Source: a virus
Length of the DNA: 64,000 nucleotides
Virus record (IMG/VR): IMGVR_UViG_3300027714_000004
Location: 1-64,000 of that record
Strand: one strand, 5' to 3'
Part shown: piece by piece, positions 25,226 to 37,093 of the stretch
How the letters are laid out: the number at the start of each line of letters is the position of its first letter
Numbering within the stretch: the stretch's first letter is position 1
The notes under the pieces: model-generated
The model's database searches: none
What the model saw: the letters and a program-made list of their open reading frames with translations, nothing else
Told to the model about the DNA's origin: nothing
Translations under genes and position numbers: made by a program

Positions 25226-25622
25226 TCTTGTTCAATGGAACTCTGATATGATGCTAGAAATTAGTCTATCAGAACCAGATGATTTCCTGAAAGTCAGAGA
25301 AACATTAACACGTATAGGTGTAGCGTCTAGGAGAGACAATACTCTATATCAATCATGCCACATCTTGCATAAGCAAGGTAGGTACTTTATCGTACATTTC
25401 AAGGAACTATTCTTGTTGGACGGTAAGAAGTCAAATCTAGAAACGTCAGATATGGAAAGACGCAACACTATCGCCACTCTGCTTGCAGACTGGGGACTAG
25501 TTGGAATCGTTAACAAAGAAGTAGCTCGTGATTGCGCTCCAATGAGACAAATCAAAATTATTTCATTCCGTGACAAGTCCGAATGGACATTACAACCGAA
25601 GTATAATATTGGAAATAGTTGA
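25203..25622 (+). CDS. regA: Translational repressor RegA
   Basis: DDFLKVRETLTRIG and QSCHILHKQGRYFIVHFKELF motifs. Confidence 0.96.
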   Translation: MAKVEENNLVQWNSDMMLEISLSEPDDFLKVRETLTRIGVASRRDNTLYQSCHILHKQGRYFIVHFKELFLLDGKKSNLETSDMERRNTIATLLADWGLVGIVNKEVARDCAPMRQIKIISFRDKSEWTLQPKYNIGNS

Positions 25623-26167
25623 AAAGTATGTCAGTGAATTATGGTATATTTGAAGGTAAAGAAGATAATATAAGAACGAAGACCCCATTTGTAGGTCGAC
25701 TTCCATTTGATATGGGGTCGACCTACAACTGGAACCAATTCATGCATATGATGGATTCTCATCCCAAAGATCTGTATGATCGAAATTCGGATAAAATGCG
25801 TATCGGATTAAACTCTTTCCACAGTCGCGGTAGTGCACCGGACTTTGCCAGAGGGATTTATGAAGAGATGCAAGATGTATTTACCCTACACGCCAACAAG
25901 ATCACTAACATTGCGTTCAGTGGTTTTGGACGTGACAGTGGATCTTACCCTTGGCATAAAGACGGAATGGATGTCTTCTTAGTTCAGGTCATCAGTACCG
26001 TAGGACTAAAGGTTGAGGGTATTGACAATAATGAAATGTTTGACTTTGAGCCAGGCATGTATGCTTACCTACCGCGTGGTACGCATCATCAAGTATTTCC
26101 ACGCGAATCTAGAGTATCCTTCTCATTCGGTGTAGAAGGTGATCCAGACCCATCAATTTATTACTAA
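25619..26167 (+). CDS. JmjC/cupin 2OG-Fe(II) oxygenase
   Basis: PWHKDGMDVFLVQV (HxD) and YLPRGTHH, typical of Cupin_4/JmjC enzymes. Confidence 0.75.
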   Translation: MKSMSVNYGIFEGKEDNIRTKTPFVGRLPFDMGSTYNWNQFMHMMDSHPKDLYDRNSDKMRIGLNSFHSRGSAPDFARGIYEEMQDVFTLHANKITNIAFSGFGRDSGSYPWHKDGMDVFLVQVISTVGLKVEGIDNNEMFDFEPGMYAYLPRGTHHQVFPRESRVSFSFGVEGDPDPSIYY

Positions 26168-26923: not shown

Positions 26924-26932
26924 GTGAGCGAT

Positions 26933-27733
26933 ATGAAAGCAATACAAATTGTAATGAAAGGAGACGAACGGTCGGAAGAGTACGCACATCTTTCTAGACG
27001 TTCTTTCCAACGTGCCATCGATGATGGTTACATCGACTCCATCGAAACCTTCGATGCGATTACCCCCCAATCAGAAGACTTCCAAGACCATGTAGATAAG
27101 TACACGTGGGATAAGAGTCTGATGACCCTAGACCTAAACTCCCCTAATACAAAAGACGATCACTCACCTTCCGAGAAGGCTGGGATGTGTTCTCATTGGG
27201 AACTTATGCGTCAACAAGGAGAGTCTGACGATAAGTTCTGGATTATGGAACACGACACTTGGTTGATAGAAGAACGTTATGAAGCGTTTAAACTTCTCTC
27301 TGAGTACTCTGAGAACACTCTCTATGCAAACATCGGACTATTCATGGGTATGTACTCTATGGATAGGGGTTTCGCCCACTGGAGTCACCACATGATGACT
27401 ACCAGACAATTCCCTATCAACTGTGGCCCATACTGCGTTCTACAACGTCTTTTCAGAACATACACAACTGACCACCTTACTCGTCCAGAAATTAATTATT
27501 ACGGAATCCGCAATACCGCCTTGCATCCTTGGTCTGGATGTGATACAATAGGCGTAGGTCGTGACATTGGAATTTACTTCAATGAGCAGGACAGACATAA
27601 GACTGGCATCCCAACACCAACGACTCAGTTGATTTCAAAACGTCTGAGTGTGACTCAAGACCATCATGGTTATAATGACAGTCACCAACAAGAGCCTTGG
27701 ACTAGACATAAATTCTTTAAAGTTGTAGATTAG
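26933..27733 (+). CDS. Glycosyltransferase family 25-like protein
   Basis: FDAI, AGMCSHWELMR and WIMEHDT resemble the GT25 F.AV / GCxxSH / ILEDD motifs. Confidence 0.55.
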   Translation: MKAIQIVMKGDERSEEYAHLSRRSFQRAIDDGYIDSIETFDAITPQSEDFQDHVDKYTWDKSLMTLDLNSPNTKDDHSPSEKAGMCSHWELMRQQGESDDKFWIMEHDTWLIEERYEAFKLLSEYSENTLYANIGLFMGMYSMDRGFAHWSHHMMTTRQFPINCGPYCVLQRLFRTYTTDHLTRPEINYYGIRNTALHPWSGCDTIGVGRDIGIYFNEQDRHKTGIPTPTTQLISKRLSVTQDHHGYNDSHQQEPWTRHKFFKVVD

Positions 27734-27736
27734 GGG

Positions 27737-27765
27737 TTGACACATAAGGCTATATACTGTATAAT
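27737..27765 (+). promoter_or_regulatory. Sigma70 promoter of the DNA-modification cluster
   Basis: TTGACA-N17-TATAAT. Confidence 0.88.
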
Positions 27766-27791
27766 GTCTATTAAACAGTGAAAGGTGTATT

Positions 27792-28940
27792 ATGAGTTAT
27801 CAACCATATAATCTACAAGATGTCTACGATGCGGCATCACAGAAGAAATTTCAAGTCATCTCGACCTTTGCGGGTGGTGGTGGATCGTCCACAGGTTACC
27901 GTCTTGCTGGTGCAGATATTCTAGCAATTAACGAGTTTGTCGAAGAAGCACGGATAACCTATAAAGAAAACTATCCAGATACTCCTATTCTCCCTGACGA
28001 TATCAAACAGCTGTCCGGTCAAGACTTTCTAGATCTCACTGGTCTCAAGAAAGGTGAACTTGATATCCTTGATGGCTCTCCTCCTTGCTCTGCCTTTTCT
28101 GTTTCGGGTAAACTCTCTCATGCATCTGATGGTAAACACTCGGATGGTTGGGGTCAAACCAAATCTTATTCTGACGGCAAGATCGTAGAAAATATCGAAG
28201 ACTTGTTCTTTGAGTTCTTACGCGTAGCCAAAGAAATCTCCCCCAAGGTAATCATCGCAGAGAATGTTAAAGGTCTGACCATTGGTGAGGCAAAAGAATA
28301 TTACAACCGCATCCTGAATGAATTCGAGAACATCGGATATGAAGTTGTCTCTGAAGTATTAGATTCCCGTTACTATGGGGTGTCCCAAACTCGCAATCGA
28401 GTAATCTTTATTGCAGTACGACAAGATGTTGCTGATGAAGTTGGTCTAAACTTCTTGACTATGAATCACTTGTTTCCAGAACCTTCTCGTACTGCTATCC
28501 CATTGAAAGATGCGTTGGTAGGACTAGAGTACGACGACGAAGAAGTCAAATATTTAACGGAGAAGTTTGAGAATACCGCATACTGGAAACAGACTGGATC
28601 CATGATGGAGAAGTTTCCTAAGAAGGTATTGTCCGGTACGGATTACCATCCCAAGGGTCACCACTTCAACCTCAAGCGAGTTTCTCTTGAAGTCCCTGCA
28701 CCAACCCTCACTGCTATGGGTAACGGGGATACGACAGCTGGTGCGTTCCATTGGAGTGAATCAAGAAAGTTGACACTAGGGGAATTAAAGCGTATAATGT
28801 CACTTCCGGATGACTTTAAACTAACGGGTAAGTGGAACCAGAAAGCAGAACGCATTGGTCGTATGGTTCCTCCATTGATGATGAAGAAGATCGCAGAGTC
28901 GGTCTATGATAACGTATTGAAGGTATACAATGAAAGATAG
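27792..28940 (+). CDS. C5-cytosine methyltransferase-fold enzyme, predicted DNA cytosine carboxymethyltransferase (CmoX-like)
   Basis: Motif I FAGGGG, IV GSPPC, VI ENV, VIII QTRNR; motif X is IGRMVPP instead of the canonical IGNAVPP. Confidence 0.85.
   Translation: MSYQPYNLQDVYDAASQKKFQVISTFAGGGGSSTGYRLAGADILAINEFVEEARITYKENYPDTPILPDDIKQLSGQDFLDLTGLKKGELDILDGSPPCSAFSVSGKLSHASDGKHSDGWGQTKSYSDGKIVENIEDLFFEFLRVAKEISPKVIIAENVKGLTIGEAKEYYNRILNEFENIGYEVVSEVLDSRYYGVSQTRNRVIFIAVRQDVADEVGLNFLTMNHLFPEPSRTAIPLKDALVGLEYDDEEVKYLTEKFENTAYWKQTGSMMEKFPKKVLSGTDYHPKGHHFNLKRVSLEVPAPTLTAMGNGDTTAGAFHWSESRKLTLGELKRIMSLPDDFKLTGKWNQKAERIGRMVPPLMMKKIAESVYDNVLKVYNER
28770..28798 (+). promoter_or_regulatory. Internal sigma70 promoter upstream of the cmoA-like gene
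   Basis: Perfect TTGACA-N17-TATAAT inside the MTase coding sequence. Confidence 0.65.
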
Positions 28941-29643
28941 AGAGCAGTATAAAGACTTTACATTTGGTCACCGCAAAGAAGGTTTCGATAATCATATCGA
29001 TGCTTCTATTCGACACTATTCCACACTACATGATGACGTGGTAAATCTATCTCGTTACTTTGTAGAGAACGATACCAAGGTTGTTGATATCGGTTGTAGT
29101 ACTGGTAAGACCGTCGAAGCCATGATCGAACAGAATCATGCGACTGCTCCTAATGCACATTACTGTGGTGTTGAGTATGCTCCTGTATTCCAAGAAGAGA
29201 TGGATACCCGACAGAAGAGACTTAATGAAGAAGGTCATCACGTCTGTTTCCAAAACAAGAACATCATCCACCACTCATTCGCTAACTGTTCTCTGGTAAC
29301 ATCTATCTTTACGTTGCAGTTCATGCAGCCATTGTGGAGACAAAGAGTTCTAGAGAACATCTACGAGGGTCTGAACGAAGGTGGTGCATTTATCTTTGCC
29401 GAGAAGACTTATGCGGAGAACTCACGTATCCAAGATATGATGACCTCGACTTTCTATGAGTATAAGGCACAGCACTTTACCTATGAAGATATTATGGAGA
29501 AAGAGAAGACTCTCCGAACTATGTTGAAACCTATGACTTGGAATGACCTTGTCGGTCTACTGACTTCAGTTGGTTTCGATTCAACTAAGATTCAACCTTT
29601 CTGGATGAACCACCTATTTGTCGGAGCAATCGCAATAAAGTAA
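28930..29643 (+). CDS. cmoA: CmoA-like carboxy-SAM synthase
   Basis: FDNHIDASIRHY, DIGCSTG, FTLQF and LNEGGAFIFAEK match E. coli CmoA blocks (F.DMI.RSVPGY, DLGCSLG, FTLQF, LNPGG.LVLSEK). Confidence 0.8.
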   Translation: MKDREQYKDFTFGHRKEGFDNHIDASIRHYSTLHDDVVNLSRYFVENDTKVVDIGCSTGKTVEAMIEQNHATAPNAHYCGVEYAPVFQEEMDTRQKRLNEEGHHVCFQNKNIIHHSFANCSLVTSIFTLQFMQPLWRQRVLENIYEGLNEGGAFIFAEKTYAENSRIQDMMTSTFYEYKAQHFTYEDIMEKEKTLRTMLKPMTWNDLVGLLTSVGFDSTKIQPFWMNHLFVGAIAIK

Positions 29644-29662
29644 ATTATTTAGCTATAAGCCC

Positions 29663-29691
29663 TTGACACTGGGTACCAATCTTGGTATAAT
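29663..29691 (+). promoter_or_regulatory. Sigma70 promoter
   Basis: TTGACA-N17-TATAAT followed by a hairpin-containing leader. Confidence 0.85.
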
Positions 29692-29787
29692 GTCACCTGT
29701 AGTCATCAATGACAGTAGTCAGACTACAAAATAAACCTAATAGTCCCGTGGACTAAAAACCAATCCTAAAAGAAAAGGAAATTTACC

Positions 29788-30780
29788 ATGAATATTCAAT
29801 TTGATTTAGATGAAATAAAGAAAAACCAAAATCCCGAAGTTATCTTCGCAAACAAAGCTGGTATCGTACACAAAAAAAGAGTAGTTGTCAAACGTTCCAG
29901 TATTGATTGGAGTGGTAGTAAGTGGCAGATTCGTGAGGGAGTGTATGATGAAAAAAACGTAGCTGAGATATTTACTTCTCTTAAACACTATGGGTACTTG
30001 ACTAGCGAAAAACCACAAGTGGTAATCCGAGCACCAGCGGGCCATCTTACGGAATTTATAGGTATCGCTGGATTCAACCGAGACGCAGCGCAACAAATGT
30101 TAGAGTGGGAGACTACTGTAGTTGATGTAGTAGAATTCCAAAATCCTATCGATCTACGAGTATTATCTCATAAAACAAATCATAAGATGACCCCTTCAGC
30201 ACCCTGTACTACAGGTGATTTTATAAAGTCTGTCCAAGCAGCAATAGAGTTTAATGAAATAGGTGGAACCGAAAAGGAAGTCATAGAACTTGTTGAGTCA
30301 ATTGTAGAACCACATCGAAAGAGCGTTATCAAAGCAGTTATTAAAACTGTTATTTCTAATATAGAATATGGTAATTCTCTACATCGTCCTTTTGATGGAG
30401 CCCTTGCTAATAAATTCGCCAAAGATGAATTTGGTATTCATACTGGTAAAGCTCACTGTGCGTTTATAAGACCTAATGGTGTGTCAAAAACTACTTTTTT
30501 TGACGGTATGAAAGCTAGTCTAGCTTTTAGTAGTGATATTACCATATATGGGTACATTGACCAACCTAAACCTGCTACTCTAAACAAAAAGCGTCAGGTA
30601 TGGATGAACGAGTTCAATAGTCTCGGAAAGTTTTGGCAGGAGGTTGTTCAGGCTGGTTCTGGGATAAGACCTCCTGTAGAGAATTGTCCGTTCGTATTTG
30701 GTGGATTCTTACCACAGAATGAGACTCCTGATCCAACTAAAGGCGGATCACCTACAGAAACCGAATTAGTTTTCATTTAA
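29788..30780 (+). CDS. Hypothetical protein with ParB/Srx-like N-terminal domain
   Basis: QIR...SLKHYG..EKPQVV...IAGFNR resembles ParB N-domain boxes (GxxR). Confidence 0.5.
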   Translation: MNIQFDLDEIKKNQNPEVIFANKAGIVHKKRVVVKRSSIDWSGSKWQIREGVYDEKNVAEIFTSLKHYGYLTSEKPQVVIRAPAGHLTEFIGIAGFNRDAAQQMLEWETTVVDVVEFQNPIDLRVLSHKTNHKMTPSAPCTTGDFIKSVQAAIEFNEIGGTEKEVIELVESIVEPHRKSVIKAVIKTVISNIEYGNSLHRPFDGALANKFAKDEFGIHTGKAHCAFIRPNGVSKTTFFDGMKASLAFSSDITIYGYIDQPKPATLNKKRQVWMNEFNSLGKFWQEVVQAGSGIRPPVENCPFVFGGFLPQNETPDPTKGGSPTETELVFI

Positions 30781-31646
30781 TGATTAGAGAGATTCTCTCT
30801 GACCACATAACAGGAAAGGTGCCGCACGATAAGGTTGCGGTACTTCTTTCTGGTGGTGTTGACAGTATCAGTGTGGCAATCGCTGCACAGGATGCTGGGA
30901 AGACTGTACACGCGTATAGTTTCCATCTCGAAGGACAACCATCTTATGATCATGCGAAGGCAAAAGAAGTCGCAGAAATCATGGGGTGGGAGTTCACCAC
31001 TATTATTGTCCCTACTGATAACCTAGTTGAAGACTGGCACCGACTAGTCAAACATGGTTGTCGCAAGAAATCCCACTACGAAGCCGCAGTGTTTCCCTTT
31101 CTCTATTGTTATGAAAACATGTCGGAAGACTACTGTATTACTGGATGGGGTGCAGACGCCTACTTCGGTTGCAGTAAGAAAGCAATGATACGATACTCTT
31201 CTTTTAAAAAGAAGCGCAACTACGTCAAGTACTGTAAAGAGAACAACCAGACGAGAGTTAACTGGAATGAGTTCCGTAATTCCTATCTAGACGGAGACTG
31301 TGCAGGACTACAGCAACACACCAATCTCGCAGAGAAGCATGGTAAGGTGCATGTCACTCCATATCTAGACCCACGCGTACGCGAGTTCTTTATGAAGTTT
31401 TCGTGGGAAGACCTCAACAGACCAAAACAAAAGAATATAATCCGTGAAGAATTTAATATTGAAGATCTGTTTGGGAAAGTCAAGCCCCATATCAATCTTC
31501 AGTTGGGTAGTGGTATTGATACACTATTCGAGACTCTTCTGGATAATCCGGAGGTAAACTATAAAAGAAGACAGAGAGTAATGGATATGTGTCGCGACTG
31601 GCACTCCGAAAATACTACTATAGATCTTTCTGAATTTATGTCTTGA
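30780..31646 (+). CDS. Asparagine-synthetase-like ATP-dependent amide ligase (CmoY-like), no glutaminase domain
   Basis: PP-loop LLSGGVDS, ITGWGADAYFG, TPYLD and KNIIREEF motifs. Confidence 0.75.
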   Translation: MIREILSDHITGKVPHDKVAVLLSGGVDSISVAIAAQDAGKTVHAYSFHLEGQPSYDHAKAKEVAEIMGWEFTTIIVPTDNLVEDWHRLVKHGCRKKSHYEAAVFPFLYCYENMSEDYCITGWGADAYFGCSKKAMIRYSSFKKKRNYVKYCKENNQTRVNWNEFRNSYLDGDCAGLQQHTNLAEKHGKVHVTPYLDPRVREFFMKFSWEDLNRPKQKNIIREEFNIEDLFGKVKPHINLQLGSGIDTLFETLLDNPEVNYKRRQRVMDMCRDWHSENTTIDLSEFMS

Positions 31647-31709
31647 CATACTCTCCCAATCTAGGTATAATAGCCTCATGAGACATACTCTCCCAATCTA
31701 GGTATAATA
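31643..31709 (+). promoter_or_regulatory. Sigma70 promoter for gp43, with a 28-bp direct duplication
   Basis: GACATACTCTCCCAATCTAGGTATAATA at 31645 and 31682; only the first copy has a TTGACA -35. Confidence 0.85.
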
Positions 31710-31714
31710 TCACC

Positions 31715-34192
31715 ATGACAAAATTTTACTCTTCTGCTATCCGTATGGGTAAGCACATTCTATATCGCGGTTACGAGAATGGCCTACAGGTCAAGAAACG
31801 TATCCCATTCAAACCTAAACTATATGTCACCACTAATAACGAATCTGAATGGAAGACTCTAGACGGTGTCCCTGTGCACGAGTGCGTACTAGACTCTATG
31901 TCTGATGCGACTGACTTTCTCAAGAAGTATGCCGACGTACACAACTTTAAAGTTTACGGTAACAATAACTATGTTTCGCAGTATATCGGTCAGAAATTTC
32001 CTAATAAGATCGAATTCGATCGTGACCTAATTCGAGTCGCCAATATCGACATCGAGGTTTATAGTAAGGAAGGTTTCCCAGAGCCAGGCAAGGCTGCATA
32101 TCCTGTGACCTCAATTGCAATGCGCAAGAACGATGGTTCCTACTGGGTGTGGGCATGTGGTGAGTACAAAACTACTCGTGACGAAGTGGTCTATATCAAA
32201 TGCGACCACGAGATGGATCTTCTCCGCAAGTTTATTGAGCACTGGTCTCACTATTCCCCTGATATCCTGACGGGTTGGAACAGTCGGTTCTTCGATATTC
32301 CCTATATCGTTAACCGTTGCGTTAACCTCTTTGGTGATGACACGTTGTTGAAACGACTATCTCCTTGGGGTGCGGTACGTGAACGTAATGTAACTATTCA
32401 AGGTCGCGCCAATCAGGAATACGTGATTGAAGGTGTCGAGCACCTAGATTACATTGAAATCTTTAAGAAGTTCACACTCAACACTCTGGGTCAACAAGAA
32501 TCCTATCGTCTAGACCATATCGCCCACGTTGTCTTGGGTGAACGCAAGTTGTCCTATGAGGAGCACGGAAACCTCCACGCTCTTTATGAAAACGACTTCC
32601 AGAAGTTTATTGACTATAACATCAAAGACGTGGAGCTGGTGCACAAGATCGATGAGAAACTCGACTTGATTACTCTGGTACTCACTATGGCGTATCGTGG
32701 TGGTGTGAACTATGGCGACACTCTTGGTACTACTAATATCTGGGACAGCATCATTTACCGTATGCTGAACAAGATGAAGGTAGTTGTCCCTTCCAAATCC
32801 GAGAAGCCTAAGACTTCATATCCGGGCGGTTATGTTAAAGAACCTCAAGTTGGGTCACACGACTGGGTCACCTCTTTCGACTTGAACTCCCTGTATCCAA
32901 ACATCATTGTGCAATACAACATGTCCCCTGAGACTGTTATGGACGGTTTCCATAATGGTGTTAGCGTCGATAAGTTCCTTGATGGGTCGTACAAGGTCTC
33001 TGAATCTAACGTCTCTATCGCGCCAACTGGGGTCGCTTTCTCGCACGACCGTGTGGGTGTTATCCCTACGGTGATTAAACAATATTACACTGAACGTCGA
33101 GTTATTAAGACCGAGATGCTGAAACTCCAGCAGGAATATCAGAATGCTCCGACTAATGCTTTGGCATATAGGATATCCTCCCTAGACAACCAACAGATGG
33201 CGATCAAGATTCTGATGAACTCCCTCTATGGTGCGCTGGGTAATCGATACTTCCGTTACTTCGATCAACGTGTTGCAGAGTCAATTACTCTTGCAGGGCA
33301 ACTTGCAATCAAATGGGCAGAGAGGGCCGTTAATAATGAGATGCAGAAACTTCTTAAAACGGATGAAGACTACGTTGTGGCAATTGACACCGACTCTCTT
33401 TATATTCGTATGGCTGCCCTTGTTGATAAGTTTTCTCCTAAAGATCCTGTTAAGTTCCTAGACAAGATTTGCTCCGAGCACTTCGAGAAAGTTTTGGAAA
33501 CATCTTATGCGGAGATGGCACTCGTCACTGGTGCGTATGAGAATCGTATGGAGATGGGTCGTGAGGTAATCGCAGACCGTGGTATCTGGATGGCGAAGAA
33601 ACGATACATCCTGAACGTGCATAATAACGAGGGTGTCCAGTACGCAGAACCTAAACTCAAGATGATGGGTATCGAGGCAATCAAGTCCTCGACTCCTTCG
33701 GTTGTCCGTGACAAGATGAAAGAAATCTTCCGCGTCATTGTAGAAGGTACCGAGGAAACCACCCAGAGATTTATCCGTGAGTTCAAGACTCTGTTTAATA
33801 CATTGCCTCCCGAAGATATTTCATGGCCCCGTGGTATCTCTAACCTCGATAAGTGGAAAGACCGAGAGACTATTTTTAAGAAGGGTACTCCCATACACGT
33901 TCGCGGTGCGTTATGTTATAACAATCTAATCAAGGAGAATAATCTTGGTAATAGATATGAACTGGTCAAGCCAGGCGAGAAGGTAAAGTTCGTCTATCTA
34001 AAAGTACCGAATCGTCTGGGTGAAAACGTTGTGGCATATCCTCAACATCTCCCCGAAGAACTGGGCCTGGGTAAGTATATCGATTACGACTTAATGTTCA
34101 GTAAGACTTTCATTGACCCTCTCGAACCAATTCTTGACGCAGTCGGTTGGTCTTCAGAACCTCGTGCCACACTGGAAGACTTCTTCGGTTGA
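31715..34192 (+). CDS. gp43: Family B DNA polymerase gp43
   Basis: DIE exonuclease motif, [26 protein letters not shown] and C-terminal clamp peptide LEDFF. Confidence 0.98.
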
Positions 34193-34223: not shown

Positions 34224-35165
34224 ATGAATTACGAATTAACTATATTTAAAAATCAGTTCGATAACAAGACCCATCGCCATATGGTTCTTGACGATTGGGA
34301 TAAGTTCGTAAATGTCCTGAAAAACATGTATAAAGAGAAAGGAGAAAAAGGTGGAAATAATTCTAGTCCTCTTATTAGTCCTGCTGTTTTCGAAGTGGGT
34401 AAGACGCGTAGTAATAAATCTACTGGTTATTGGGGTGGGTGGTGCTGCGTTGATGTTGACGATCATACTTTTTCTAGAGATGTTCGAGTCCTTAACCAAG
34501 AGTTGCACGAACTCTTTAGGGAATACGACTACGTTGTGTACAACACTGCATCAAGTCGAGACGAGAATCTCAAATTTAGGATCGTATTTCGATTAGATGA
34601 ACATATTGAAAACGAGCGAATCAAGGCATTTTGGTTTGCACTGAACACTAAACTGGGTGAACTAGGAGATCCACAGACCAAAGATCTCGCACGTATGTAC
34701 TATGTCCCCGCTCAGTATCCTAATGCGACTTCGTTCTTTTTCACCAATCAAGGGACTTCTATTAACACGTCTGAGTTGATGGCGAAATATCCGTATCACG
34801 AAAAGACTGGTAATTCCTTCTTAGATAGACTACCCCCAGAGATGCAACAGGCAGTTGTCGCACATCGTAAGAACAGTCTAAATAATACCGACTTCTCGTG
34901 GTCATCGTACCGAGACTGTCCCTTCTGGCCAAGAAGGTTAGGTGCAGAGTATCAGCAGATCAGTGATGGTGGTTGGTACTCCCAGATGTATAAGATTATG
35001 CTTGCGATAGCAGGTAACGCGTATTCGAAAGGATACCCAATAACCGCTTCTCAAATCTCTGTTATGTGTCAAGAGTTTGATCGAGAGACTGGTAATTGGT
35101 ATGAGAATCGTCCCCTGACCGTAGAGGCGGACAGGGCATTAGAATATATTTACAGGAATAGTTAA
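34224..35165 (+). CDS. AEP-superfamily primase / primase-polymerase
   Basis: VDVDD, YNTAS, KFRIVF and KDLARMYYVP motifs plus a helical C-domain. Confidence 0.65.
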   Translation: MNYELTIFKNQFDNKTHRHMVLDDWDKFVNVLKNMYKEKGEKGGNNSSPLISPAVFEVGKTRSNKSTGYWGGWCCVDVDDHTFSRDVRVLNQELHELFREYDYVVYNTASSRDENLKFRIVFRLDEHIENERIKAFWFALNTKLGELGDPQTKDLARMYYVPAQYPNATSFFFTNQGTSINTSELMAKYPYHEKTGNSFLDRLPPEMQQAVVAHRKNSLNNTDFSWSSYRDCPFWPRRLGAEYQQISDGGWYSQMYKIMLAIAGNAYSKGYPITASQISVMCQEFDRETGNWYENRPLTVEADRALEYIYRNS

Positions 35166-36107
35166 ATGAAGAAAGTATTAGTAACGGGTGCTGCCGGATT
35201 CATCGGGTCTCAGCTCTCAAAGCGTCTAATGAATCGTGGACTCCATGTAAAAGGAATTGACAACTTTAACGAGCACCTGTATACTCCTAGATTAAAAGTA
35301 GACCGAATGAATCACTTTGTTCTGGATATCTGGGGATGTGATTTACGAGATGAAGTTAAACTGGAAGCACTATTAAGAGACTTCCAACCAGATACTATCG
35401 TCCACCTTGCCGCAATGGCAGGGGTTCGTGACTCTATGGGTAAAGAGAAGAGTTACCACGAGAACAACATTGACGCGACCCAAAACCTTATTGACATCTG
35501 CAAAGAACATTTACCGGAAACTCGTATAGTATATGCGTCGACCTCTTGTGTATATGCTGGTTCTCCTGTTCCGTGGACTGAAGGTCAGGAGTCAGGTAAG
35601 CAGTTAAACGCATATGGTTACACCAAGTGGGCGAACGAATGTCAGATGCAGTCCTCTGGTCTTAACAATATCGGTCTGCGATTCTTCACAGTCTATGGCC
35701 CATGGGGTCGACCTGACATGGCGTTGTTCGATTTCACCAAGAATATACTTGACGAGAAGGAAATAATCGTGTATAATTATGGTGATATGAAACGTGACTT
35801 TACTTACGTGGACGATATTCTTGACGGTATTGAGGTTGTCCTAGACAACACTGAAATCCCATCTAATGAGATCTTTAACATCGGTCGCGGTGAACAGGTC
35901 GCGTTGATGGACTTTATTGGAGAAATCGAGAAGAATACTGGGAAAGACGCGATCAAGAAACTTGCTCCTAAACATCCTGCGGATACTCTAGAGACTTGGG
36001 CAAACACTTCCAAGTTGCAAGCCCTAGGTTATAAACCAAAGGTGGATATTGCGGAAGGTGTTGAGCATTTTTATGAATGGTATAAAACTTATAATGGAAT
36101 TAAATAA
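35166..36107 (+). CDS. NAD-dependent epimerase (UDP-glucuronate 4-epimerase-like)
   Basis: TGAAGFIG, HLAAMAGVR, YxxxK (YGYTK) and RFFTVYGPWGRPDMA motifs. Confidence 0.9.
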   Translation: MKKVLVTGAAGFIGSQLSKRLMNRGLHVKGIDNFNEHLYTPRLKVDRMNHFVLDIWGCDLRDEVKLEALLRDFQPDTIVHLAAMAGVRDSMGKEKSYHENNIDATQNLIDICKEHLPETRIVYASTSCVYAGSPVPWTEGQESGKQLNAYGYTKWANECQMQSSGLNNIGLRFFTVYGPWGRPDMALFDFTKNILDEKEIIVYNYGDMKRDFTYVDDILDGIEVVLDNTEIPSNEIFNIGRGEQVALMDFIGEIEKNTGKDAIKKLAPKHPADTLETWANTSKLQALGYKPKVDIAEGVEHFYEWYKTYNGIK

Positions 36108-37093
36108 TGTCTGATACAACACAGGAAGGTGGAATCTCTAGATTCCGAATAGGTATCGTAGGTCATGGTTTTGTCGGTCAGGCAGTGGAGTATGCATTTA
36201 ATCACCCTCTGGTAGACTTCAATTACTATGACCCAAAATATGAAACTAGTCTAGACACTCTCGGTGATTTCTCTGCTGATCGACATCCTAGATGTTTCTT
36301 TATATGCGCTCCTACTCCCTCGAATGATGATGGGTCGGTCAATTCTAGTATAGTGGAATCTGCGGTCATGGAGTGTTTGACCCAGACCGATGCCTTAGTT
36401 GTTGTCAAATCAACGATTACACCGGAATCTATTGACAGCCTTTATGCAGGAATGAGCAGAGAACAAACTAATCGTTTCGTCTATAACCCTGAGTTTCTAA
36501 CGGAGAAGAATGCTAAGTCAGATTTCGTGAATGCTAAGTTTCATGTCATCGGTGGTATGCCAAATCCCGCACAGGAACTTATTGATATCTATGAAATCTT
36601 TGGTGGGTGTCAGTCTGATGACTATCACCGTATGACTGCGTATGAAGCATCCTTTGTGAAATATACTATCAATTCATTCCTAGCAACCAAGGTAACCTTC
36701 TTTAATCAGTTGTATGATCTGGTTAATATGTACGGTTGCAACTATAATAATATCGTCCGAGCAGTAGGTAAGGACGATAGAATAGGTATGGGTCACACCC
36801 GTGTGCCGGGCTTTGATGGTAAACGAGGATTTGGTGGCGCATGTTTACCCAAAGATACACGGGCATTCTTAGACTTTTCAACACATGAGTTTGCTGACGG
36901 AACTATGACTAGTTTCGATTTATTGGAAAAAGTACTTGACATCAATGGTGCTTATCGTGTACAATATGACCTTGATGAAAGAGAAAGAATTAATAATATA
37001 ACATTTGTAGATTTTGGAGGCAAGAATGAGCATAATGGACAAACTAAAGAAGAACTCGAAGATAAAGGAAACAGCGATACTATCGACGAGTAA
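36107..37093 (+). CDS. UDP-glucose/GDP-mannose 6-dehydrogenase family, lacking the C-terminal domain
   Basis: GHGFVG, APTP, KST, NPEFL and GFGGACLPKD motifs. Confidence 0.88.
   Translation: MSDTTQEGGISRFRIGIVGHGFVGQAVEYAFNHPLVDFNYYDPKYETSLDTLGDFSADRHPRCFFICAPTPSNDDGSVNSSIVESAVMECLTQTDALVVVKSTITPESIDSLYAGMSREQTNRFVYNPEFLTEKNAKSDFVNAKFHVIGGMPNPAQELIDIYEIFGGCQSDDYHRMTAYEASFVKYTINSFLATKVTFFNQLYDLVNMYGCNYNNIVRAVGKDDRIGMGHTRVPGFDGKRGFGGACLPKDTRAFLDFSTHEFADGTMTSFDLLEKVLDINGAYRVQYDLDERERINNITFVDFGGKNEHNGQTKEELEDKGNSDTIDE

Follow-up and report, generated by a model that had tools for sequence, protein, structure and literature searches.

A cassette before the DNA polymerase gene of a marine T4-like phage is predicted to carboxymethylate and amidate GpC cytosines

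The window analysed here comprises the first 64,000 nucleotides (nt) of a T4-like virus record 145 kb long (IMG/VR IMGVR_UViG_3300027714_000004, called G000 below; 88% complete, 41.9% G+C) recovered in marine metagenomes. Directly before the gp43 DNA polymerase gene it carries the genes cmoX, cmoA and cmoY and, inserted between the last two, a fourth gene encoding a protein of 330 amino acids (Table 1). An earlier note on this DNA had described a cytosine C5-methyltransferase (C5-MTase) with its motifs in place and a motif X reading IGRMVPP, the codon of its Arg357, an overlapping CmoA-like gene and a ligase without a glutaminase domain, all placed ahead of the polymerase. Both the open reading frames and the alignments agree with that description, the cmoX/cmoA overlap amounting to 11 nt. 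The note had also pointed to a comparable CmoX/CmoA/CmoY set reported from a Synechococcus phage; this set exists and is that of phage S-B43 (Yang et al., Nat Commun 2025; PMC12783734). The cassette is reproduced in contigs from other marine runs, and an RNA run yielded scattered contigs of related strains only.

In the S-B43 system, SpCmoA makes carboxy-S-adenosylmethionine (Cx-SAM), SpCmoX (structure PDB 8YF3) forms 5-carboxymethylcytosine (5cxmC) at GC only and from Cx-SAM only via its Arg350, and SpCmoY amidates 5cxmC with glycine, the glycine amide being present at ~75% of the GC sites in virion DNA (PMC12783734). The window CmoX is 65% identical to SpCmoX (E 1.5e-154), and 8YF3 is its best structure match. 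Motifs I, IV (SPPC99), VI (ENV157) and VIII (R201, R203) are intact, the catalytic SPPC motif being S96-P97-P98-C99. All the named Cx-SAM-binding and catalytic residues of SpCmoX are kept, with F26, E48, F49, D70, C99 and R357 corresponding to F25, E47, F48, D69, C98 and R350. The IGRMVPP motif begins at residue 355, and Arg357 (codon CGT, 28860-28862) aligns with Arg350 of 8YF3 and with the Asn in motif X of M.HaeIII and M.HhaI (M.HhaI N304). The earlier note had also linked this residue to Asn374 of M.MpeI; here the match ends at residue 350, which leaves Asn374 outside the alignment, and the equivalence is taken from PMC12783734. The engineered M.MpeI N374K, as described there, resembles the window CmoX in that a basic residue at the Asn position of motif X permits Cx-SAM use, but it is CpG-specific, carries Lys rather than Arg, is man-made and has no dedicated Cx-SAM synthase or ligase. 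The Arg is invariant in the motif X matches of related cmoX loci. An R357N mutant would be expected to be dead rather than reverted to S-adenosylmethionine (SAM), because R350N abolished both activities of SpCmoX (PMC12783734). Leu or Met occupies the same position in two other C5-MTases (L189:2501-3718, of Methylophilales phage Melnitz, and L357:1425-2621), and Melnitz has a full GpC footprint (48/48) of the kind described below.

The window CmoA is homologous over its full length to SpCmoA (52% identity), contains the SAM-binding motif DIGCSTG and has structure matches to 4GEK and 1IM8 (E 1e-18 to the E. coli CmoA structures). With TIGR00740, the NCBIfam CmoA equivalog model built for bacterial CmoA, it scores 106.5 bits (E 1.6e-30), below the cut-off of 193.3. 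However, SpCmoA is only 28% identical to E. coli CmoA and yet active, so that the missed cut-off is no argument against the phage CmoA family. The E. coli protein (PDB 4GEK, 4IWN; cmo5U tRNA pathway) has fold and family in common with the window CmoA but, unlike phage CmoA, supplies CmoB for tRNA; its stretch KRSML reads KEKTLR in the window CmoA and KEKELR in the active SpCmoA. In a phage contig binned with Porticoccaceae, cmoA aligns in two pieces (L383:10286-11166, G034 C1), owing to an insertion or a frame break.

In an alignment of 282 columns, CmoY is 46% identical to SpCmoY (E 6e-79), above the ~30% network threshold of PMC12783734, and nearly all family-conserved residues are common to the two proteins. 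Its match to Asn_synthase begins at its own N-terminus and is confined to the synthetase part, so that it has no glutaminase domain, which makes ammonia from glutamine an unlikely substrate. Judged by these alignments, the window CmoY is a ligase of the SpCmoY type and the amine that it joins is probably glycine.

Among 80 related IMG/VR cmoX loci, cmoA adjoins cmoX in 78, the other two being cut contigs, and cmoY adjoins in 43, in line with the three-gene co-occurrence in related phages that the earlier note expected. The presence of three close orthologues of the characterised S-B43 enzymes also supports its reading of carboxymethylation followed by amidation. We put at roughly 0.85 the probability that the window cassette is orthologous to the CmoA-CmoX-CmoY pathway of S-B43 and works as follows. 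Early in infection, CmoA would make Cx-SAM from host SAM and prephenate. In newly synthesised phage DNA, CmoX would flip out the cytosines of GpC, attack C6 with its Cys99 and transfer the carboxymethyl group bound by Arg357, which yields 5cxmC. CmoY would use ATP to adenylate the carboxyl and couple it to an alpha-amino acid, with glycine as the likeliest one. Sites overlapping GpC would be protected by the mark against host restriction, where the main visible pressure is an enzyme cutting CCNGG. As to the single steps, the formation of 5cxmC in the window phage appears very probable from the comparison with S-B43, and GpC is in all likelihood the target. The three reactions have been demonstrated for the S-B43 orthologues only; here we observed the genes, the residues, their co-occurrence, the footprint and the exchange of the insert.

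Besides the three genes, the SPPC motif, the motif X Arg and the ligase without glutaminase domain, the likeness to S-B43 includes a ParB-domain neighbour and a GpC-type footprint. The gene order differs: X-A-(ParB)-Y directly before gp43 in the window, A-Y-X away from the polymerase in S-B43. The phage lineage is also different, the nearest isolate here being phage C48C1. The cassette chemistry is already published and the window cassette adds one member to a family of >5,000. Indeed, 5,615 CmoX homologues have been listed, often with ParBc-domain neighbours (PMC12783734); the present IMG/VR identifiers are not among the entries in the accessible part of its source data. The novelty that the earlier note had suggested in target, amide and inserted gene has little room, with GpC again, an SpCmoY-type ligase and a ParB-fold accessory of a kind already noted in that paper.

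A further line of evidence comes from the restriction-like sites, several of which are avoided in G000. Of its 60 CCNGG sites, 59 are preceded by a G on one or both strands (13.7 expected, p 8e-37), and at the 60th a GC lies one base away. A synonymous-codon shuffle predicts 120 unflanked CCNGG sites where one is found, and 42 G-flanked sites where there are 52. Pro-Gly pairs, which always spell CCNGG, are halved (47 vs 93); 43 of the 47 use the glycine codon GGC, compared with 9% elsewhere, and the other four follow a G. GGWCC, ACCGGT and GACGTC, in which the C cannot fall in GpC by any flank, are absent. In S-B43, the positive control, every remaining CCGG site has a G flank (8/8, p 2e-6), whereas the CCNGG footprint, strong here, is lacking there (57 unflanked sites vs 58 expected). 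The G-flank rule holds in other cmoX genomes at CCNGG, CCGG, CTGCAG and CCATGG, and therefore does not reflect the flank preference of one enzyme. No such footprint was found in six cyanophages that have neither a C5-MTase nor DruA (syn9, Syn19, S-PM2, P-SSM2, S-ShM2 and S-CAM22). The simplest reading is that a GpC mark, even on one strand, would block host endonucleases; the responsible restriction enzyme was not found. Anti-restriction by the S-B43 system was shown in vitro only, with HhaI (PMC12783734), and the selection on CCNGG in G000, including the resort to a rare glycine codon in Pro-Gly, provides in vivo evidence for this role. More generally, the footprint offers a sequence-only means to read the targets of phage DNA-modifying enzymes.

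The flank scan comprised 512 tests per genome and was corrected accordingly; G-flanked CCGG in S-B43 survives the correction, while G-flanked CACGTG in S-B43 (p 7e-4) and G-flanked CGATCG in S-CRM01 (p 8e-4) fail it. Raw GpC depletion moves from a rho of 0.77 to 0.90 after codon control and is weak evidence, and G-flanked CAGCTG was left out because it may be an Ala-codon effect. Other sources of the pattern were considered and set aside. For a phage-encoded CCNGG nuclease, no match to the EcoRII-C or LlaMI families was found in G000, although other folds are possible. For 7-deazaguanine at GGC, G000 has no TGT or QueD match and its only QueC-like match is cmoY, a diverged DpdA being possible; the rescue of CTGCAG by a G flank in relatives does not fit GGC either. 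Host methylation of GGCC is at odds with the occurrence of all four bases before GCCNGG. In G000 we also noticed that CTTAAG is absent though a G flank is possible, and that CGWCG is T-flanked in 109/118 cases.

Several observations weigh against the pathway as proposed, and the rival explanations build on them. Near its active site, CmoY differs from SpCmoY by a 17-residue basic insert, by YEAAVFP in place of FE-CTFP and by Gly127Ala. The CmoX/CmoA step might be unchanged while the CmoY sub-type found here uses a different amine in place of glycine, such as a polyamine or some other amino acid, which would make a new base. The window protein does belong to a sub-type of 285-290 residues whose Lys/Arg-rich insert lies at 139-165, its nearest relatives are altered beside the conserved Glu101 and Asp126, and ligase clusters with differing pockets have been reported (PMC12783734). 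We regard this as unlikely, given the conserved residues that CmoY shares with SpCmoY and an insert that would more readily bind DNA. Eight loci have cmoX and cmoA before the polymerase without an adjoining cmoY; these relatives may stop at 5cxmC or hold the ligase elsewhere. They are L003, L004, L007, L017, L018, L034, L037 and L039, with cmoX up to 94% identical. Taken at face value, the generic annotations DNA_methylase, tRNA methyltransferase and Asn synthase would also fit an ordinary SAM-dependent 5-methylcytosine methyltransferase beside a CmoA and a PP-loop enzyme serving tRNA or other metabolism. To this we give hardly any credence: wild-type SpCmoX accepts only Cx-SAM (PMC12783734), and Arg357 and the linkage to cmoA are essentially invariant.

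The remaining objections concern the target. The target-recognition region of CmoX diverges from SpCmoX more than the rest of the protein and has a 6-residue insert after the TL motif. CTGCAG is depleted in G000 (5 vs 60 expected) despite its internal GpC, so either the inner position gives no protection or modification of TGCA is poor. Genomes with cmoX are not the only ones to show the footprint, since it is seen with a DruA-like gene, is partial with neither gene in C48C1 (70/89) and P-HM1 (45/64), and occurs in many relatives with neither gene in the locus examined. Because it also occurs without cmoX, we counted it as support and not as proof of GpC targeting by CmoX. The target could then be narrower than, or other than, plain GpC, and the footprint could be an inherited relic, the work of another phage or host modifier, or the trace of a restriction enzyme that disfavours G-flanked sites. 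However, G000 shows the footprint in full and genomes in which no gene was found show it in part, and an N4/N6 methyltransferase of P-HM1 could account for the footprint of that phage. The rule moreover holds at several unrelated sites and with all four bases before GCC, and G000, at 88% completeness, has one C5-MTase and no match to DruA, Mom, N4/N6 methyltransferases, TGT or QueD. We consider such another cause improbable and retain GpC modification by CmoX as the preferred explanation. In C48C1, no C5-MTase, DruA, Mom or N4/N6 methyltransferase was found, and its partial footprint may be a decaying relic or due to some other modifier; 17/18 of its other CCNGG sites are T-flanked.

The slot before gp43 is variable. 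In polymerase-related loci it is empty in 46 cases, contains a DruA/DUF4338-like gene in 11, cmoX in 4 and other genes in 3. The DruA-like slot gene (378 amino acids; L117:7309-8445, L109, L103, L126, L282-L340 and S-SSM7 ORF173, L184) sits in the cmo slot or near gp43 in relatives, and it never shares a record with cmoX. A model of its product has a GNAT fold (VIA Z 8.4, 166 aligned residues), with Mu Mom among the tied top GNAT matches, and DUF4338 has been called GNAT (PMC10853773). Across 59 DruA loci, which include related, non-independent genomes and are mostly fragments, 290/301 CCNGG sites are G-flanked. Individual carriers give 74/74 (G001) and 84/88 (S-SSM7) at CCNGG and 19/19 at CCGG (S-CAM9), and the complete genomes of S-SSM7 and S-CAM9 combine the footprint with the absence of a C5-MTase. 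In HTVC008M (W03; L167, L199-L203), with two DruA-type genes, 38/48 CCGG sites are G-flanked. On the other hand, S-SM2 carries the DruA gene without a footprint, the footprint of S-T4 is weak, and the partial footprints of C48C1 and P-HM1 occur without this gene.

We give even odds to the proposal that the DruA/DUF4338 family modifies GpC. The wider idea, that the slot is an exchangeable 'GpC armour' cassette in which a DruA-like GNAT enzyme replaces CmoX-CmoA-CmoY and modifies GpC, seems to us equally balanced between true and false. The footprint test is blind to which base of GpC is changed; the modification would probably be on cytosine, possibly with glycine from a charged tRNA. A tRNA-Gly gene is adjacent to DruA-type genes in eight distant loci; within this clade, tRNA-Gly does not set the cmoX group apart from the DruA group. 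Phage Mu Mom (PF25680, PDB 8BV8; PMC13219725) and DruA/DUF4338 (PF14236) have the GNAT fold in common with the slot gene, but Mom modifies adenine while the footprint with the DruA-like gene points to GpC. A homologue in S-SCSM2R was annotated as Mom-like, without tests (PMC12801897), and no published activity of the phage DruA/DUF4338 family was found in the literature searched. The footprint readout assigns a candidate GpC target to a family with this previously vague annotation. If correct, the DruA-like gene would represent an undescribed DNA modification converging on GpC, and the cultured phages S-SSM7, S-CAM9 and HTVC008M carry it. HTVC008M keeps GATC (83/83) and GANTC (42/42) only with a GG/CC flank, as does Mosig (W16) for GATC (8/8); each also has another DruA-type gene, a longer one, whose target may differ. 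Canonical Mom genes (PF25680) are present in cmoX-bearing relatives (L089:11795-12604; G027, G028), which suggests stacked adenine and cytosine modification.

The inserted gene has no Pfam, PHROG or NCBIfam match and 13 homologues only. Over residues ~21-136, the model of its product resembles ParB, Noc and PadC (Foldseek E 2.3e-5 to Noc and 2e-5 to 5e-4 across numerous chains of ParB and Noc; VIA Z 9.1 to PadC, with a root-mean-square deviation of 2.8 over 98 aligned residues), ESM Atlas gave a lead to ParB_N, and a GFNR motif with invariant G95 and R98 lies at the position of the ParB GxxR. The N-terminal domain has the fold of the ParB/Srx superfamily (Noc, PadC, ParB, sulfiredoxin; PF02195), from which the gene differs in its lack of a Pfam or PHROG match and in being exchanged between strains. 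In a contig of a near-identical strain, a different stretch of 1,452 bases takes the place of exactly 29668-30780, and contigs of two further runs have their breaks at identical points; the left breakpoint coincides with the -35 box of the promoter at 29663..29691. Close relatives have other genes or none at this position. The exchange in near-identical strains indicates a passenger between promoter and cmoY rather than a pathway enzyme; our best guess is a DNA-binding or NTP-sensing accessory.

Table 1. Features of the cmo cassette and its borders (window coordinates)
Feature	Position	Strand	Basis or remarks
sigma70-type (early) promoter for cmoX-cmoA	27737..27765	+	TTGACA-17-TATAAT, 12/12 consensus; putative function
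cmoX, predicted DNA cytosine C5-carboxymethyltransferase, 382 amino acids	27792..28940	+	nucleophile Cys99; Arg357 as the residue binding the carboxylate
sigma70-type promoter within cmoX (second perfect match), 130 nt ahead of cmoA	28770..28798	+	12/12
cmoA, predicted carboxy-SAM synthase, 237 amino acids	28930..29643	+	homology to SpCmoA and E. coli CmoA
sigma70-type promoter for inserted gene and cmoY	29663..29691	+	12/12
accessory 330-residue protein, N-terminal ParB/Srx-fold domain	29788..30780	+	structure-model matches
cmoY, predicted ATP-dependent amide ligase, 288 amino acids, PP-loop SGGVDS	30780..31646	+	46% to SpCmoY
DNA polymerase gene promoter and partial tandem duplicate	31643..31708	+	12/12 (31643-31671), 10/12 (31680-31708)
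gp43 DNA polymerase, right border of variable slot	31715..34192	+	73% to phage C48C1, ~46% to cyanophages

The perfect sigma70 consensus promoters at 27737, 28770, 29663 and 31643 suggest early expression of the cassette, and the one inside cmoX may raise the output of cmoA. The gp43 promoter region (31643-31713) is partly tandem-duplicated, and 37 nt of it are missing in one contig. Phage C48C1, for which no host was found in the literature, is syntenic with the window and has an empty slot. A sister phage contig (polymerase 70%, cmoX 87%) was binned in a Porticoccaceae metagenome-assembled genome, a weak hint at such a host because binning can misplace phage contigs.

Upstream of cmoX, a 269-residue gene (26924-27733), GT25-like by eye and with no Pfam or PHROG match, persists in relatives whose slot is empty and is therefore not part of the cassette. 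A JmjC/cupin-like gene (25619-26167; PF08007, E 2e-5) follows regA and is conserved in the clade. After gp43, the region 34224-37093, with a perfect promoter at 34189, encodes a primase-like protein (phrog_9765), a nucleotide-sugar epimerase and a UDP-glucose dehydrogenase. Further along the record, an open reading frame at G000:C1:74377-75870 is carbamoyltransferase-like by eye and has a counterpart annotated as Nol-like in C48C1. The opening 55 or more bases of the record are repeated close to its end (G000:C1:145100).

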